Shown: piece after piece, positions 395 to 8,114 of the stretch
How the letters are laid out: each line of letters starts with the position of its first letter
How positions within the stretch are numbered: position 1 is the first letter of the stretch
Source of the DNA: Schmidtea polychroa
Taxonomy: Eukaryota
Reading direction: 5' to 3'
Assembly (NCBI GenBank): GCA_044892525.1
Contig: CM097885.1
Coordinates: forward strand, 34,226,001-34,290,000
Length of the DNA: 64,000 nt
Notes under the pieces: generated by a model
Told to the model about the DNA's origin: nothing
The model's database searches: none
What the model saw: only the letters and a program-made list of their open reading frames with translations
Position numbers and translations under genes: made by a program

Positions 395-3300
395 CTAATT
401 AAGGTCTGCTAAAGTGCCAGTTTTGTGGTAGTACCACCGTCTGGCAGAATGTGTGATGTTACTTATCGTACATTCCTTCAGTAGACTGTTTATTTCTGTG
501 CGTTTAACTCCAATTTTTAAAAGGATTTCAGGAGTTGATGACGGAAAAGAACCCAAAGCTCCGATAATACAAGTGTCAAGTTCGACTTTGAAATCAGGTT
601 TGACAGCTTGTATTTCATTCTTAAGCGATTCGTATTTAATTAAATTTGAAGAGTCAACTAGTTGAAAGTTCTTGACAGAGTCGATAGGACATTTCATGTC
701 AACTAGAAAGATCTTCCTTTTCAACAAATCAGTGATCATTAAATCCACTCGTTCTTTGGAATTCGGAACAAGTGAACAGATATGATCTACTACAACAATC
801 AAGTTGGGATTTTTCATTAATCGATTAGTGATTAATTTCAGACAGTCATCATGTCGCTCTGAGGCAAGGGTCAGATGGACTTTACAAGATTGAATGACAT
901 GTGACATTGTCTCTTCCTCAGTTTGACAACGACGACAAAGTCTTTTACCACCTTTATTGTAAGGCTTCGCATTGACTGAGAGGGAGTTTGTGCGAGCTCT
1001 GTGTATGAAGTTCCAAGCAAATTCAGAGAGAGCACCACGAAAAATTGCGATGTTTATTTTAGGCGAAAGTCTGATTGCTGCAGCTATAATGTTGGAGTTA
1101 TGACTGTTCTCTCCTTTCAAAAGATAGGCATCGCAGAGTGCCATGTGCAAAACCTTAGACGTGGTTTGGCGTAAGTCAGAAGTGAGAATACACGTGCCAC
1201 GCATTGCTGTTGTAATATAAAGCGATGTTTCTTGCTTTGTTACAATAAATGCTATTGAGATTTTGTGATATTTTTCAAAAAATGCAATAGCAGTTCTGAC
1301 TCGCTGGAATCGAGTTTTCTTTCCAGAATGGCAAAGTTTGGATTGCTTACCATTGAGCCAGTCAAGACTCTCCTGTAGTGTAGGGTCTTTTATTCCGAGT
1401 CGAGGTCCAGTGACAAAGCTCAGAGAATCAGTGTTGATCTTTTTCGCAAAGTCACACTTCGATGTTAAGAGTCGAAAGAAATGTGTTATTGTCTGTGTGT
1501 GATATTCGTCAAGAAGGTCTACACAGTTTGCTCCTCCGTTTTCAGTTGAGTTGTAGAAATAACTTACTTCAGAGTGATTTGGCAAAAGTAACATTTTTCT
1601 GAGACAACTCCTCACTTGACTGGTGATGTTGACAGAACGATTACTATTGGCGCTTGGTTTTGAAAGAGCGCTAGTTTTAATTTCGCGAGTTCTAAAGGGA
1701 AAAATCAAACGTGAATGGACAAAGATCTTATAAGCTTTAAGTTTTTGCCATCCAAGTAGGTCAGAGTCGGCAAGTTTTTTCGTGTCAGATACGACCTTCT
1801 CAAGAATGTCATATGGATTCTGATCAGTCTCTTCACCAACAAGCACTCCAAGATACTGATAAAATTCATTAGGTTGTAATTTTTTGATTTTAATGCTGTC
1901 AATCGAAATTTCACTATCTATTTCAAGGTTTGGCAATTGAAGATATGCACACTTTTCAGGGCGATATTCAAAGCCAATTTCAGCTGCAGTTGCTACAGCT
2001 ATATCGGTGATTTTCTGAAGTTCTTCAACAGACTTTGTAACTAAAGCTATGTCATCTGCATATGCAAGGATCTTAATTGGAGATTTCCCAATCCTGAAAG
2101 GTCTACAATCGGATCGCGATACAGCTTCAAGTACTGGATTAATGGCCAAAGCAAACAATATCATCGATATTGGACATCCTTGTTTGACACCTTGTTTAAT
2201 AGGGATGTTTGGTGTCAGAATATTACCACAGCTGTAAAAGGTACTTGTGTTGGAATATAACATCTGGATGATGGATGCAAATTCCTCGCTTACTCCAATG
2301 AATCGGAGTAAGGACCACATGTATTCATGGGGAACACTACCAAAGGCATCTTTTATATCAAGCCAAGCAATTGCAAGAGGCTTATTTACGCTGTATTTTG
2401 AGTGTTCTAGTGCAGCAGAAAGAATTGAATTATGCTCAACACATCCATCATGTTGTGAGCCACCTTTTTGACCGATATGTAAAAGATCATTCGAGTTTAT
2501 CCAACTTGTCAGACGACTAGCTAAACAAGATGCGAAAACCTTGTAAATGACAGAAAGTAAGGAAATTGGACGCCAAGACGAGACGTCATCATATTTTCCA
2601 TCTTTATCCGGCTTAGGAGTTAGAAGTGTTTTGAAGGTCTTCCAACTGTCTGGTATGGTCTTGTTTAAAATGATTTTATTGTACAAGAAAGTAAGCAATT
2701 TACCCTCGGGATCAAGAGACAACAAGTCACGATATTGTATTCCATCAATACCAGGACTTGTGTTCTCAGCTTTCTTTAGTTCGATAAGTACTTCATCACA
2801 TGTGAGCAAAATTAAACGAAGTTTAATTTGGGAACGTTTACAGAATTCAAATATTTTATCCCATGATTTTTCTAAAGGGGTTTTGTGCATGAAATTCATG
2901 ACAATATTTTGAAATTTTGGCATCACTGTGATATTTGTATTGTTGAAGATTTTATTGACTGTTGACTTCATATCAGTCATGAATTTTGCGATTAATTTAC
3001 CCTTGTTGATTTTTGAAGGTAATTTCTTTTTATTTCCCAAGTATGGTTTATGAGTTGATTTTAATTTGTCAGGGAATTGCTCAATGATAACGTCAATGAT
3101 TTCGTTTACATTGAAATCTGTCACTCTCCTCAGTAGTTCTAATGCTCTGAGTTTACGCAATTCTAAATTTGCATTCCCCTCTTTATTTTTGTTACTGTTT
3201 GTTGGTCTTACAGTCTTTTTCCTATTAAAATCATTTACAATTGGGATAAATGAGCTGACGACATTACCAATTTCGTGTAAGTTCAAATTTGTAAGAGGTA

Positions 3301-4999
3301 AGTCTTTAGCATAGTTTTGGATGAACGCGCATATCAGGATTTGACTAACTAGACCTGATCCTCGAGTGTCATGAGGACAATTACCAGTATATAATACACG
3401 GCCAGGTGATTCTCTGATTTCATTAATTTTGTTCCTAAGAATTTTGCAGGTAGGAAGATAACTTTCATTACCACTCAGTGTCGTCGGATTTAGAAGATAG
3501 TGCTCATCAGTTTGGTAATCAATGATAAACAAGATTTCCCTTGATTTTTCTGGTGCTACGATAGTAAATATGACTTGTGCCTTGATCAACGATTCACAAT
3601 CTAAAAATTCATTTAAATATCTAGTGCAATCGTCAAGAATCGCAGTGCACATTGTAGCATTTAAAAACATGAACTTTGTGGGTAAGTTTAATTTATGAAT
3701 GTATTTTGATGTGATTTCATCATTAATTTTACAGTTAATTAAGTTTAAATTCCTGGAGATCTCGTTTGTTTGTTGTATTTTATAAGATTTAAGGGAGTCA
3801 CTGATACTTCTACGACAAACCTGATTGTCAAAAAGTAATTTTTCGACCAATTCAATGACAGCAGAAGCAAATATATCTGGGTCAACAGATGTGATGGAAA
3901 TGTGGTCGATGTTGTGGAGACTATTGAAGTTGATCTTCGTTTGAGAAAGGAAAAATTTATTCATATAGTCTGTCATGTTTTCTCCTATGCCGATTAGTCT
4001 CTCAGTTAGAACTCTGTTGTTAAAGTTGAAAATGTAACTGATTCCTAAAACGAAAGAGAAAAGATACAGACTCCAATTCGTGTCGTCTGGAATGACGCTG
4101 ATGACATGTTCTATTCCAGCAAATTGTTTAAACGTGACATTTTCCCTGATGAATATATCGTTTTGTGCAATAATATTCAATGTCAGTTCATGAGAAAGAA
4201 CAGTAATATTGCTTTTATCTTTATACCATTCACTAATCAGGTATGTGATACATGAGCTCTGTTTCTGGAGATACATCAGGTTACCATTCCTCACCTTCTT
4301 AACTCCATTCCGTTTGATTGTCTCCATGAATTTTGGAAGGCCACCCCCCGAAGTTTTGGGATCTTTTTGTTGTTGAGTAAGTTTAAACTGGTGGACCTCT
4401 TTCCTGATAGTTTCGATGAAGCAGCCCGACAAGCTCTGCCATTCTCCACAAATCATCATGGCATATGCGCAGATGTATGGCCCACAATCATAGCTATTAT
4501 TTTGATATAAAAGGTTATTATGAGGATGAAAAGTCATGGCTGCTTTAAGGTCAAACAATTCATTCAGAGCCATTGTGATCTTAAGAGCAATTGTTTTATT
4601 CGTAAAACTATGCCGATTTAGAAGGATTGGATCGATGAAGTAAGAAATTAGGGAAGATTTACAATAAACGAACAAGATCCAATGAGATTTGTTGATGTTA
4701 AGGGGGCATAATATTACTTGTGCTTTCAAGACTCTTTCCGGAATTGGGAAAGTGTCATTCTCGAGGTTAGAGCACAAAATCTCAACGATAAAACATTTGA
4801 TATACGCAAATTCTGGGTTGATGATGTGATTTTCGAGAAAATTATCAATATCATCATCAGTGAACCAGATCTTTGGGTCGCGTTTTACCATCAAATTTTT
4901 ATTATTATTTATGATGTCGTGATGTTTATTAGAATTTTTTGTGCTGTCTGCATCAGTCTCCTTAGAGATTGGGGCAGATGTTGAGACTGATGCAGGCAC
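395..4999 (-). CDS. Retrotransposon polyprotein: Ulp1/C48-like protease, reverse transcriptase, CCHC zinc knuckle, restriction-like endonuclease
   Basis: Uninterrupted 1534-codon ORF. RT motifs SPGIDG, WRPISLL, WLDIKDAFGSVPH, GVKQGCPIS, LAYADD, YQYLG; C-terminal CRRC-x7-H-x4-C, RHD, RVD..DMK..KY. The called start is GTG two codons after an in-frame TGA; the first in-frame ATG is at 4891. Confidence 0.95.
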   Translation of the reverse strand: MPASVSTSAPISKETDADSTKNSNKHHDIINNNKNLMVKRDPKIWFTDDDIDNFLENHIINPEFAYIKCFIVEILCSNLENDTFPIPERVLKAQVILCPLNINKSHWILFVYCKSSLISYFIDPILLNRHSFTNKTIALKITMALNELFDLKAAMTFHPHNNLLYQNNSYDCGPYICAYAMMICGEWQSLSGCFIETIRKEVHQFKLTQQQKDPKTSGGGLPKFMETIKRNGVKKVRNGNLMYLQKQSSCITYLISEWYKDKSNITVLSHELTLNIIAQNDIFIRENVTFKQFAGIEHVISVIPDDTNWSLYLFSFVLGISYIFNFNNRVLTERLIGIGENMTDYMNKFFLSQTKINFNSLHNIDHISITSVDPDIFASAVIELVEKLLFDNQVCRRSISDSLKSYKIQQTNEISRNLNLINCKINDEITSKYIHKLNLPTKFMFLNATMCTAILDDCTRYLNEFLDCESLIKAQVIFTIVAPEKSREILFIIDYQTDEHYLLNPTTLSGNESYLPTCKILRNKINEIRESPGRVLYTGNCPHDTRGSGLVSQILICAFIQNYAKDLPLTNLNLHEIGNVVSSFIPIVNDFNRKKTVRPTNSNKNKEGNANLELRKLRALELLRRVTDFNVNEIIDVIIEQFPDKLKSTHKPYLGNKKKLPSKINKGKLIAKFMTDMKSTVNKIFNNTNITVMPKFQNIVMNFMHKTPLEKSWDKIFEFCKRSQIKLRLILLTCDEVLIELKKAENTSPGIDGIQYRDLLSLDPEGKLLTFLYNKIILNKTIPDSWKTFKTLLTPKPDKDGKYDDVSSWRPISLLSVIYKVFASCLASRLTSWINSNDLLHIGQKGGSQHDGCVEHNSILSAALEHSKYSVNKPLAIAWLDIKDAFGSVPHEYMWSLLRFIGVSEEFASIIQMLYSNTSTFYSCGNILTPNIPIKQGVKQGCPISMILFALAINPVLEAVSRSDCRPFRIGKSPIKILAYADDIALVTKSVEELQKITDIAVATAAEIGFEYRPEKCAYLQLPNLEIDSEISIDSIKIKKLQPNEFYQYLGVLVGEETDQNPYDILEKVVSDTKKLADSDLLGWQKLKAYKIFVHSRLIFPFRTREIKTSALSKPSANSNRSVNITSQVRSCLRKMLLLPNHSEVSYFYNSTENGGANCVDLLDEYHTQTITHFFRLLTSKCDFAKKINTDSLSFVTGPRLGIKDPTLQESLDWLNGKQSKLCHSGKKTRFQRVRTAIAFFEKYHKISIAFIVTKQETSLYITTAMRGTCILTSDLRQTTSKVLHMALCDAYLLKGENSHNSNIIAAAIRLSPKINIAIFRGALSEFAWNFIHRARTNSLSVNAKPYNKGGKRLCRRCQTEEETMSHVIQSCKVHLTLASERHDDCLKLITNRLMKNPNLIVVVDHICSLVPNSKERVDLMITDLLKRKIFLVDMKCPIDSVKNFQLVDSSNLIKYESLKNEIQAVKPDFKVELDTCIIGALGSFPSSTPEILLKIGVKRTEINSLLKECTISNITHSARRWYYHKTGTLADLN
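480..937 (-). other. CCHC zinc knuckle plus PD-(D/E)xK restriction-like endonuclease
   Basis: CRRCQTEEETMSHVIQSC (884-937), RHD (~848-856), R-V-D (Asp 743-745; the usual Pro is Val), D-M-K (692-700), then KY and IIGALG as in R2/NeSL/R4 C-termini. Confidence 0.85.
1840..2800 (-). other. Non-LTR reverse transcriptase domain
   Basis: YADD encoded at 2051-2062; the other conserved RT blocks are present in the expected order. Confidence 0.95.
4385..4870 (-). other. Ulp1/SENP-like (peptidase C48, clan CE) cysteine protease domain, catalytic residues intact
   Basis: WFTDDDIDNFL start motif; ILCPLNINKSHWILF (His codon 4682-4684); YFIDP (Asp); QNNSYDCGPYIC (Gln; Cys codon 4484-4486). Confidence 0.88.
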
Positions 5000-5005
5000 G
5001 CACCT

Positions 5006-7123
5006 TCATTTAATCTTGGAGACTACTTTCCTCGTTTTCCTACTTGGTCTTGTTAGTAGGTCCTCCTGTTGATCACAACTGGAAATTGCGGGAGTAGATG
5101 GGATTATATCCAAATCAACAGGCAGCTGTCGTTTCAGAGTCGCATGTTCTTGTAGATCACCCTCCAGAATGTCGTTAATCTCTATGGGTCGAGATGGCTC
5201 TTTCACAGCTGTTTCCACCGAGTTATCTAATCCAGGTGTGTTTCTCCTCTGCTCACCATTACTTTCAATCACAGATGTCAAGAGGACATCAAGCATGTCT
5301 GTGATAATGCAAGTCATATTTGGTGTGCAAATTTTCCTACAATGCTTAGGTATACGGTAGGAGAATTTACTGTTAGATAAAAATTTCTTTTTGTCTCTAA
5401 TGATAAAAAAGAGAAATCTTTTAGCTTTTATCATCTCTTCTTCGGATGTACCTAATTCCATTTCATTAATGTTGCGGCCCAAATTCTCAAGAACCTTAAG
5501 TTGGGCAGCCTTTTGTGGACAGATTTCATCAATTTTGTCAAGAAAGGAATTGATTTTATAGATGGTTTCTGGAGAGATAATGTTGTGTATTCTATCGATC
5601 TCCTCTGACAGTTTCCACTGTCGAAGTTTTAGTAGTCTTTCCTGACAACTAGAAGAGTAGTATGAAAGACTGGGGATCATATTAATCATCTCCGGACCCC
5701 AATTTTCGATGTTGTCGCACCTTAATGTATTGCAATTTTCAATTTTAGTAATTGAGTGCATCAAAAAACAATTACGTAAATAGTTTTTAACGTACTCATC
5801 AAATGTAGGATTTGAAATGTGTATTATGGTGCCTTTTAAATTTAAATAGTTGATATAATATATTATGTCAACCAGTTTAGATGGGGAGTTTGGCTGAGTC
5901 AGAAGAGAGTTAAGTATGGGGTCATCTTCTGACATTTTAACAAAATTAACCAATCCCAGGTTGAACATTATATCAGACGCATTTTCAGAATGTGGGACTT
6001 TAGGAATTTCAGTAATTTTATTAGTTTTAATAAATTTGCCCTTCACAAACGAGATCTCATTAGGGAAATTTTTTTCTAATTTTAAATCATTAATTAATTT
6101 AGTTAATAAATCAGGATTCTTATTTATATTCTCAGAAAAATATAATTCCTGAATTTCAGGAAACGATTTATATAACTCTTTCAACTGTGATCGCGAAAGT
6201 TCTAAGGTTTGAAGACTGGTGTTCTCATTACCAGAGTCACAGCTATTGAAAAGATCTAACAAGATAAAATCACCTTCAGAAAATGTTATCTGTGATCTTA
6301 TCAGGAAATCAGGAAGTTCACGTCGTTGTTTCATTCCATTCAAGATGTTATTTGTCTGTGCCGCTCTTTGATTTATATTTTTGATGGTAGCCGTCTCTGC
6401 GAGCTTATGTGAGAGGGAATACAAAAATCTTTTAATTACAGAGGATGCAGGGATAAAACTATCAACATATTTGTTAGTTTTAACAATATTTGAATCTATT
6501 AGCGAAATTTTCAATGCACTAGAAGTCTTTATCTCGATCGGGGCTTTCGCTTTATAGTTCAATTTATGGGAAACGCATATGTTGTGGTTTCTGTAAAAGA
6601 AATGTGAAAAATCCACGATCGACAAAGGATTATCATTTCCAGATATAGAAGCTAATTCTTTATTTATTGTTTGAAATTTATTCAGAGTTTCCCGAGACTT
6701 AATTAATTTACCTAATTTTGGAAAAAGTTTTATCAAATTTATTTTCTCCGTCCTTGAAAGAGTTCTTACATAAGAATGGAAAATTGAATTTGAGTATTTT
6801 TTGTTATTAATCAAATTTTTGCTTTTAAAATATTTTGTATTTTGATACATTTTATTTTTCAAAAGGCCTTTGTTTTCTTTAGCCAAAAAATTTGAATCGT
6901 TTTTTTCAACTTTAATTATATTTAATTTTGATTTGTTTAAGTTATTTAATTTAATATTAGATAACATTTGTTCTTCAAATTTAGGTAAATAAAATTCTAC
7001 TTTTCGAATTTTATTATTAACAGTTATTTTTAATTTAGGTTCCAGATCTCCACATGCCTGAGCCTGATGTTCAAGAGAAGGGCCACTCCGGGTAACCGAA
7101 TGGGAACTCGATTTTTTTTTTTT
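5006..7123 (-). CDS. Upstream retrotransposon ORF of unknown function, in frame with the RT ORF
   Basis: 653 aa from ATG 6967. Manual translation shows the frame stays open upstream to 7123, inside the A14 tract. It ends at TGA 5006-5008, followed in frame by AGG TGC GTG CCT into the RT ORF. Confidence 0.75.
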   Translation of the reverse strand, partial: KKKKSSSHSVTRSGPSLEHQAQACGDLEPKLKITVNNKIRKVEFYLPKFEEQMLSNIKLNNLNKSKLNIIKVEKNDSNFLAKENKGLLKNKMYQNTKYFKSKNLINNKKYSNSIFHSYVRTLSRTEKINLIKLFPKLGKLIKSRETLNKFQTINKELASISGNDNPLSIVDFSHFFYRNHNICVSHKLNYKAKAPIEIKTSSALKISLIDSNIVKTNKYVDSFIPASSVIKRFLYSLSHKLAETATIKNINQRAAQTNNILNGMKQRRELPDFLIRSQITFSEGDFILLDLFNSCDSGNENTSLQTLELSRSQLKELYKSFPEIQELYFSENINKNPDLLTKLINDLKLEKNFPNEISFVKGKFIKTNKITEIPKVPHSENASDIMFNLGLVNFVKMSEDDPILNSLLTQPNSPSKLVDIIYYINYLNLKGTIIHISNPTFDEYVKNYLRNCFLMHSITKIENCNTLRCDNIENWGPEMINMIPSLSYYSSSCQERLLKLRQWKLSEEIDRIHNIISPETIYKINSFLDKIDEICPQKAAQLKVLENLGRNINEMELGTSEEEMIKAKRFLFFIIRDKKKFLSNSKFSYRIPKHCRKICTPNMTCIITDMLDVLLTSVIESNGEQRRNTPGLDNSVETAVKEPSRPIEINDILEGDLQEHATLKRQLPVDLDIIPSTPAISSCDQQEDLLTRPSRKTRKVVSKIK

Positions 7124-7610
7124 TTAAAAATAAATTTTTATTTAAATTTTTTACTTCATTTCTAGTTAAGTAATTAGTATAATTAGGATCATTATTATCA
7201 TTATATATATATGTTCTAGATCCAGCATTTAAGGGTTTATTTATAATTTTAGGTTTAATTATATTTAAAGACTTTGAATTATTTCTTAATTTAGTAATAT
7301 AAGAAATTTTTTTATTTAATTTATGTTTTTGATTTTGAAAATCATTTACTTTATTTTGATAAGAATTATATCTATCAGAATGAAATCCATTACTAAAATT
7401 GTTTTTAAATTCATTATCTTTTACAAAATTATTTAAAAGAGAAGCATTGGCATTCTCAGGTTTTAAACTGTAATCTAGATTTATATAGTTCAAAAATAAA
7501 TCAATCTTACGTTTAATTTCCAGAAATCCATCCTCAATCGAAAACATCCTCCTTGACAAGTCCAAAAGGCCATCTTCCACGGAAATCAGTCCAGAATCTA
7601 ATCTAGGCAT
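7071..7610 (-). CDS. 5'-most retrotransposon ORF segment (coiled-coil-like N-terminus, Asn/Lys-rich), probably fused to the next ORF across the A14 tract
   Basis: ORF track gives 7071..7658. ATG 7610 (MPRLDSG) is the start retained in the inverted copy. Overlaps the next open frame between 7071 and 7123. Confidence 0.6.
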   Translation of the reverse strand: MPRLDSGLISVEDGLLDLSRRMFSIEDGFLEIKRKIDLFLNYINLDYSLKPENANASLLNNFVKDNEFKNNFSNGFHSDRYNSYQNKVNDFQNQKHKLNKKISYITKLRNNSKSLNIIKPKIINKPLNAGSRTYIYNDNNDPNYTNYLTRNEVKNLNKNLFLKKKKIEFPFGYPEWPFS

Positions 7611-8044
7611 ATTTTCATTTGAACGTTGTGCATATAAATAGTTTTTGTCGATATCCATTTGTTAAGATTAACAATCAATTTGCTACTTATAGATTGAAAG
7701 TAGTTATAATAATTTCAAATTTTCGTCTGTCACAAAATATGCCTAGATTAGATTCTGGACTGATTTCCATGGAAGATGGCCTTTTGGACTTGTCAAGTAG
7801 GATGTTTTCTATTGAGGATGGATATCTGGAAATTAAACGTAAGATTGATTTATTTTTGAACTATATAAATCTAGATTACAGTTTAAAACCTGAGAATGCC
7901 AATGCTTCTCTTTTAAATAATTTTGTAAAAGATAATGAATTTAAAAACAATTTTAGTAATGGATTTCATTCTGATAGATATAATTCTTATCAAAATAAAG
8001 TAAATGATTTTCAAAATCAAAAACATAAATTAAATAAAAAAATT
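7305..8044. repeat. Long inverted repeat: arms 7305-7615 and 7734-8044 (311 bp, 4 mismatches), 118-bp spacer
   Basis: Base-by-base comparison; paired positions sum to 15349. Both arms translate as MPRLDSGLIS...HKLNKKI on opposite strands. Confidence 0.97.
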
Positions 8045-8114
8045 CATTATCATTTGAATTCAGATCAATATAATATTTCAATTTCAATATTTGACAAGTG
8101 ACATAAATTTTTTC

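Follow-up and report, generated by a model that had tools for sequence, protein, structure and literature searches.

The question raised by this locus is why a retrotransposon should carry, ahead of its reverse transcriptase (RT), three successive copies of a protease fold of which only one has a complete active site, and what that one copy might cut. The locus lies in Schmidtea polychroa (assembly GCA_044892525.1, contig CM097885.1, positions 34,226,001 to 34,290,000 of the forward strand) in a stretch of 64,000 nucleotides, here called the window, the first 8 kb or so of which is occupied by one element on the minus strand, assigned from its sequence to the R2 group among retrotransposons that lack long terminal repeats (non-LTR). 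Its second open reading frame (ORF2) extends over 395 to 5005 on the minus strand, 1536 amino acids (aa) from stop to stop, with residues numbered here from window position 5005. Three clan CE (Ulp1/C48) folds make up the start of ORF2; the first has its full active site, the other two are catalytically dead, and the linker behind the first carries a conserved glycine motif at which copy 1 may cut its own protein. The features concerned are these:

4382 to 4876, minus strand: copy 1, a C48-fold cysteine protease with a complete active site (aa 44-208; W47, D50, H108, W109, D125, Q168, C174)
4340 to 4348, minus strand: Gly220-Gly221-Gly222, candidate self-cleavage site in the disordered linker aa 213-247 (pLDDT <50)
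3776 to 4258, minus strand: copy 2 (aa 250-410), a C48-fold repeat that is catalytically dead and has diverged furthest
3248 to 3742, minus strand: copy 3, a catalytically dead C48-fold repeat (aa 422-586) with R489, N506 and S554 at the His, Asp and Cys positions

A preliminary description of this DNA had proposed a triplicated Ulp1-like module with one complete and two incomplete active sites; profile comparisons, predicted folds and a census of active-site residues agree with it. Its motifs lie where it placed them in the frame 395 to 5005 on the minus strand and its register across the copies is correct (W47 to K426; H108 to N310 to R489; C174 to S554), while the alignment of copies 1 and 3 that it took to be gapless is so over about 41 residues and needs small gaps over its whole length. 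At the level of single sequences the evidence is uneven. Pfam detects PF02902 (Peptidase_C48) on copy 1 (aa 92-184; E 1.7e-5, 25.2 bits vs a cut-off of 20.7) with copies 2 and 3 undetected in the same search of ORF2. The local score of 51 between copies 1 and 3 was equalled by 22 of 2000 shuffles, that between copies 1 and 2 was reached in 198 of 2000 and that between copies 2 and 3 in 1150 of 2000, such that pairwise alignment alone is insufficient to establish copy 2. With 14-row profiles hhalign joined copy 1 to copy 3 at E 1.9e-6 over 139 columns, copy 2 to copy 3 at E 1.8e-6 and copy 1 to copy 2 at E 1.8e-4 (1.7e-3 reversed), with all 18 control pairs involving RT and endonuclease segments at E of 0.07 or above. 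A profile of 14 C48 proteins from outside such elements, its rows confirmed by Pfam and picked by likeness to copy 1, found copy 3 at E 1.7e-7 and copy 2 only at E 0.012. With copy 2 undetected by Pfam and weak in this profile, it was the fold search that settled its identity. In ESM Atlas features, clusters bearing C48 lie close to copy 3 (0.95) and to copy 2 (0.92), with the C48 family on 17% of the members of the top cluster; these scores are uncalibrated for parts of proteins and serve as a lead only.

An AlphaFold2 model of the first 590 residues (16 alignment rows, pLDDT 78.7, pTM 0.43) shows one order of helices and strands in all three copies, the N-terminal leader and the linker aa 213-247 being disordered; given the pTM, the packing between copies is not determined by the model. 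Copy 1 of the model superposes on Ulp1 (2hl9) with Z 17.2 (rmsd 2.9, 173 residues aligned); SUMO/NEDD8 proteases match it at Z 16-17, above the Z 9.6-10.5 of viral maturation proteases. Fold searches with the whole model were dominated by matches to copy 1. Folded alone, copy 2 reached pLDDT 92.4 and against 48,161 chains matched SENP5 with Z 13.7 (rmsd 3.2, 157 aligned) and Ulp1 with Z 13.2, ranks 1-23 being Ulp/SENP or bacterial or viral CE-type proteins, clan labels which we have in part assumed, with the first clearly unrelated chain at Z 5.3; Foldseek agrees (E 2.1e-5). In a wide search with the whole model, copy 3 (residues 419-589) was the part best matched by RavZ, with Z 8.5 (rmsd 3.6, 156 aligned), and by the SdeA DUB, with Z 7.1, both of which we take to be CE-type. 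As such the clan CE fold, the absence of which from the downstream segments was to count against the proposed module, is found in both of them.

The active-site residues separate the copies. In the three-repeat set (n=14, window protein included) copy 1 has D125, Q168 and C174 in every member, H108 and W109 in 13 and W47 in 12, the misses falling to two N-terminally short rows, and D50 is Asp in 13/13 rows having a residue there. The His-Asp-Cys order and the oxyanion Gln (H108, D125, Q168, C174) align to Ulp1, and copy 1 retains both the acid equivalent to Ulp1 D451 (D50) and the Trp tunnel (W47, W109), W47 being presumably the counterpart of Ulp1 W448. On sequence and model, copy 1 is a Ulp1/C48-fold cysteine protease that is predicted to be active. 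In copy 2 the His is present in 0/14 and the following Trp in 4/14. In copy 3 the Cys position holds Ser in 12/14 (S554) and Asn in 2/14 but never Cys, the Asp position holds Asn in 12/14, the oxyanion Gln is found in 0/14, the tunnel Trp in 0/14 at both positions, and the D451-equivalent position carries Asp in 2/14 and Glu in two more. The earlier statement that copies 2 and 3 lack the catalytic His and Cys therefore stands for the His of copy 2, for the Cys of copy 3 and for the window's own copy 3 with its Arg489, and fails for the His of copy 3 across the set, which is kept in 11/14, P0053 having Leu and P0011 Tyr there.

The kept His allows a reading in which copy 3 of most relatives would be a Ser-His-Asn hydrolase on a CE scaffold, the three residues of the triad being present in 11, 12 and 12 of the 14 with S550-G551, in the loop before the Ser position, invariant. 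This is improbable, as the window copy has Arg in an otherwise open frame and the two relatives just named have also replaced the His, while Asn stands for Ser in two relatives and the oxyanion Gln is lost. Nor is the suggestion that the dead copies bind SUMO in the manner of Ulp1 supported by the census. In the C580S trap of Ulp1, which has no catalytic activity, binding of SUMO depends on D451 (PMC3216068; literature is cited here and below from excerpts of the papers). With the Trp tunnel and the D451-equivalent Asp missing, copies 2 and 3 read as pseudo-enzymes and not as Ulp1-style SUMO traps, and whatever these repeats bind, SUMO held in the Ulp1 way is an improbable partner.

Searches for relatives yielded one match to the module among full-length proteins and 49 among 1.84 billion representatives, and a search with the RT part gave 37; of the proteins so found 13 carry all three segments, being 21-44% identical to the window element. 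Among 11 full-length proteins mean pairwise identity was 34.8% for copy 1, 37.9% for copy 3, 55.4% for the RT and 22-23% for the linkers, and in copy 2 it was 30.0% over aa 250-355 and 17.5% over aa 356-421. Being conserved as strongly as copy 1, copy 3 appears to be maintained by selection, and the sequences indicate that neither dead copy is decaying. That the extra copies are decaying remnants of a duplication or mere spacers is accordingly very unlikely: it would suit the absence of copy 2 from two relatives (P0008 and the fragment P0010) and the divergence of its last 65 residues, but it is largely refuted for copy 3, which is more conserved than copy 1 and the linkers, and it sits poorly with the average over the first two-thirds of copy 2 and with the high confidence at which both copies fold.

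Seven further proteins carry one active and one dead copy, namely P0013, P0018, P0019, P0021, P0052 with its cluster mate P0020, and P0063, with two C48 stretches detected by Pfam in each of P0018, P0019 and P0063 and D/N-S-G-P in several of the dead copies where D-C-G-P is expected. A seven-row profile of this dead copy, which includes the 5'-short P0064, matched copy 1 at E 1.3e-17, copy 2 at E 2.1e-12, copy 3 at E 7.4e-18 and the non-element C48 proteins at E 1.4e-13, and because it matches each of them it ties all three copies together. In a quick maximum-likelihood tree of 40 RT rows with SH-aLRT support, one branch (support 99) takes in P0008 together with the 13 three-repeat rows that have an RT, a separate branch (98) takes in four two-repeat and two 5'-short rows, and a single-protease element lies outside both with weak support (83). 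Both P0008, which is nested among the three-repeat elements, and P0010 retain copies 1 and 3 only, and copy 2 has therefore probably been lost secondarily in them. The simplest reading of this history would be that a single protease gave rise to an active and a dead copy and that the dead copy was then duplicated, with occasional loss of copy 2. Two other proteins may be noted beside this: P0030 (aa 1-200) has GGG directly upstream of a protease domain that retains His and Cys, a hint of a state with two active copies, and in P0062 (aa 1-140) the sole visible domain retains DCGP. A distant R2-group element (L001, 765-4220) has a single C48 domain immediately before the RT and a zinc-finger-like motif in a separate upstream frame. 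Among the 80 loci kept in a scan of JGI metagenomes C48 was found only in this element, as a single domain, and the scan gave no flanks of a multi-copy relative.

What copy 1 might cut is suggested by the linker that follows it. A GG or GxG motif starting 38-52 aa past the catalytic Cys is present in all 22 multi-copy proteins (14 three-repeat, 8 two-repeat) and also in seven fragments outside this count, as compared with 61 among 1317 windows of 20 residues taken elsewhere in these proteins (4.6%). P1 is Gly in 20/22, both exceptions being G-x-G, and P4 is Leu or Ile in 14/22 vs 16% L/I/M across the linker window, so that the motif is often LxGG, with the variants (L/I)xGG or xxGxG. G220 and G221 are the sole linker positions conserved in at least 12/14. 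The motif does not follow the dead copies (copy 2 0/14, copy 3 0/14, the dead copy of two-repeat proteins 0/7; 0/35 windows together), and among 17 C48 proteins from outside the family, eight of which end too early, none of the other nine has it at 38-52, one having GG at 57 past the Cys. The single-protease protein P0066 has LSGG near aa 655, far upstream of its domain.

Viral proteases of the same clan cut at such sites. The adenovirus proteinase has the consensus (M/I/L)XGG|X and (M/I/L)XGX|G (PMC4246237), pS273R of African swine fever virus (ASFV) cleaves polyproteins at Gly-Gly|Xaa and the vaccinia I7 protease at Ala-Gly|Xaa (PMC4584293, PMC1198262). Both variants of the linker motif match the adenovirus consensus and fit the sites of viral clan CE maturation proteases. 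The preliminary description had offered a polyprotein-processing protease as one of two roles for copy 1, and the conserved Gly-Gly site lends this role specific support.

We propose that ORF2 would encode a self-processing polyprotein in which copy 1 cleaves the bond behind the second residue of the Gly motif (T-S-G-G|G, G221|G222), in cis or between molecules, and is released, such that copies 2 and 3, having no Gly site, would stay on the mature RT-endonuclease as its N-terminal module at the place usually taken by zinc fingers. From sequence and analogy we put the probability of this reading at roughly 0.55. The dead repeats would be kept as folded scaffolds or protein-binding modules, perhaps for targeting, and are candidates for such a role because zinc fingers are usual at that place and none was found before the RT. 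Freed copy 1 may act on ubiquitin-like tails as well, since LxGG resembles such tails and since copy 1 is nearer to the SUMO/NEDD8 proteases and keeps the D451 equivalent. A bolder version, in which a captured Ulp1-fold protease would mature the RT at a mimic of a ubiquitin tail and the dead copies would replace the zinc fingers as the target finder, for example by binding a protein at transfer RNA (tRNA) gene arrays, is doubtful.

Several points weigh against this proposal. The window's own site (aa 218-222) has Thr at P4, and 8/22 proteins are without Leu or Ile there. A degenerate fragment left out of the count (P0022), with a copy 1 lacking His-Trp and the start of a copy-3-like domain, has no Gly motif, and neither do the single-protease elements P0036, P0066, P0070 and L001, the motif therefore not being generally required by these proteases. 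The 22 motif-bearing proteins share ancestry, and their agreement is conservation and not repeated origin. Conserved glycines can also serve as a hinge, and in structure copy 1 is closer to the cellular SUMO/NEDD8 proteases than to the viral maturation proteases and keeps the D451 equivalent. We infer self-cleavage from sequence and by analogy, and the role of the dead repeats from their position and conservation only. A complex prediction for copy 1 with the Gly linker, made without an alignment by a method untried on peptides, scored 0.00 and speaks neither for nor against cleavage.

The structural likeness of copy 1 favours a different account, along the lines of the anti-silencing module in the preliminary description, in which copy 1 would stay tethered and strip host proteins of SUMO or another ubiquitin-like modifier, copies 2 and 3 would bind modifiers and so aim it, and the glycines would be no more than a hinge, the whole countering silencing or steering repair. 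The SUMO/NEDD8 proteases are indeed its best fold matches, W47 and D50 stand for W448 and D451, the change from Cys to Ser in copy 3 is that of the Ulp1 C580S trap (PMC3216068), and a role in the ubiquitin pathway has been proposed for the Ulp1 domains of transposons (PMC2836005). Set against this are the loss of the tunnel Trp and of most D451-equivalent Asp from copy 3 and the lack of any counterpart of that motif in copy 2, while the part of copy 1 that matches the SUMO-binding surface of Ulp1 (418-447) is disordered (pLDDT <50) and variable in length, though it could order on binding. The fixed LxGG-type motif would be left unexplained and no result links the element to silencing. As such this account is rated possible but unlikely. 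Less likely again is that the Gly motif is a built-in pseudo-substrate, lodged in the active site of copy 1 either ahead of cleavage or once it has happened, that would keep the protease off until some trigger, serving regulation over release. The motif does mimic a substrate tail on a short flexible stretch beyond the last helix of copy 1, but a perfect P2-P1-P1' match beside a complete triad would be expected to be cut.

Among known systems, Ulp1, SENP1/2/3/5/7 and NEDP1/SENP8 (family C48) resemble copy 1 in their fold, in the order of the triad, in the Trp tunnel and in having the D451 equivalent, but they are lone catalytic domains acting on host modifiers, whereas copy 1 is about 165 aa long, shows no ordered N-terminal surface for SUMO in the model and has dead repeats behind it. 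The adenovirus proteinase, ASFV pS273R and poxvirus I7 belong to the same clan and process precursors of their own, with cuts at xGG|X, xGX|G or AG|X (PMC4246237, PMC4584293, PMC1198262), the pattern carried by the linker here; they are free enzymes acting on virion precursors, with no fusion to an RT and with the lower structural match given above. Among DNA transposons Ginger1 and Mutator have an Ulp1 domain with a proposed role, a single C48 domain on a DDE transposase, dead repeats going unmentioned in the excerpt (PMC2836005).

The closest comparison is with the nematode NeSL elements and Utopia-1_TSP (NeSL clade, R2 group), in which one Ulp1-like domain stands at the N-terminus (Kojima and Jurka, 2015, PMC4640811), one protease domain per element with His and Cys in all 12 elements of the figure excerpted (PMC4640811 S5 Fig), whereas here there are three copies, two of them dead, and a conserved Gly site. 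R2 and Utopia proteins usually have one to three N-terminal zinc fingers (PMC4640811, PMC13580325). Utopia is described as having one ORF with such fingers, whereas here there are two long ORFs and an ORF0 and no such fingers, and the element, which resembles the NeSL type in how it would work, is set apart from Utopia by that description. R5 elements have a two-ORF layout, and this element too has two long ORFs. Compared by description only, the planarian R5/LIN elements are of the NeSL clade and some target tRNA genes, with LIN15_SM and LIN25_SM inserting inside tRNA genes (PMC4640811 S6 Fig), whereas the element here adjoins a tRNA array with its junction in the spacer. In literature consulted mostly at the level of listings, with the original NeSL-1 description and Repbase outside its scope, no description was found of a retrotransposon whose protease is repeated or has dead copies, nor of one with a Gly cleavage site.

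LTR elements and viruses ordinarily mature by proteolysis; for non-LTR elements no such step is, to our knowledge, established. Ulp1-like domains occur in several transposon groups and in the literature compared, as excerpted, their function has so far been speculative; an apparent substrate of the protease's own, at a fixed and conserved place, makes self-processing distinguishable from deSUMOylation of host proteins. The Gly motif after copy 1 appears to be new, and of value beside it are the pseudo-protease repeats that run through the family unseen by Pfam; the series of one, two and three copies offers a clean case of pseudo-enzymes arising and being kept in a mobile element. R2-group proteins are under development as gene-insertion tools (PMC13580325), for which a zinc-finger-free N-terminal module would be of practical interest.

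The remainder of ORF2 has an R2-group layout, given by the RT followed by a CCHC knuckle and a restriction-like endonuclease:

1826 to 2770, minus strand: reverse transcriptase (Pfam RVT_1, E 1.2e-26, aa 798-1053; YADD at aa 982)
395 to 937, minus strand: CCHC zinc knuckle (aa 1357-1374), restriction-like endonuclease with a PD-(D/E)xK-type motif at aa 1419-1438, and the stop

The assignment of the endonuclease rests on R2-group architecture (PMC13580325), with R1419, D1421, D1436 and K1438 invariant across 20 relatives. The closest named matches to the RT are uncharacterised RTs of Plectus, Centruroides and ticks at 27-30% identity. A regular expression found no zinc-finger pattern upstream of the RT in ORF1 or ORF2. 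ORF2 has Gly at aa 1298 (1112-1114), a position held by Trp in at least 90% of 20 aligned relatives; this may be a change specific to this copy.

Upstream of the module lie the following:

4877 to 4999, minus strand: ORF2 N-terminal leader, disordered in the predicted structure, with a short ADST-type motif common to relatives
5006 to 7123, minus strand: ORF1, 705 aa, in the frame of ORF2 with a single TGA (5006-5008) between them
7071 to 7733, minus strand: ORF0 and presumed 5' region, ORF0 being 7071 to 7661 (196 aa) and overlapping ORF1 at a long A run
7734 to 8050, plus strand: inverted duplicate, a 98% copy of 7299-7615 (317 bp, the start of ORF0), joined to tRNA-array spacer
8040 to 64000, minus strand: flanking host array in which a nearly identical 255-bp unit is repeated in tandem about 219 times, every unit holding a tRNA-Phe(GAA) gene that lies on the element's own strand

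ORF1 has no Pfam family and no homologue at E of 0.001 or below among 7999 candidates. The start of ORF2 is probably the GTG at 4999, six nucleotides past the ORF1 stop, because the M-P-A start of relatives aligns there, and expression past the TGA may be by reinitiation, read-through or a non-AUG start. ORF0 and ORF1 overlap at a T5-A13 run (7113-7130) with GC-richer sequence after it, where either the frame shifts in a programmed way or the homopolymer is in error. Contigs from four runs of four studies span all 30 bins of the compared stretch, with 7109-7149 skipped. The ORF1 stop is not among the 40 of 313 contig differences listed, and the ORF2 variants listed, a selected subset of 34 and as such not used as a test of selection, comprise 20 synonymous and 14 nonsynonymous changes and no stops.

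A single junction with the host is visible, within the spacer of the tRNA-Phe array behind the inverted duplication, the 3' flank lying beyond the window. The outer arm of the duplication shares about 11 nucleotides with the spacer, and the duplication (7299-8050) looks in sequence like a rearranged 5' junction. In the 3' untranslated part a 47-nucleotide piece (315-361) is 81% like two pieces of the 5' region, 7440-7485 and 7864-7909.

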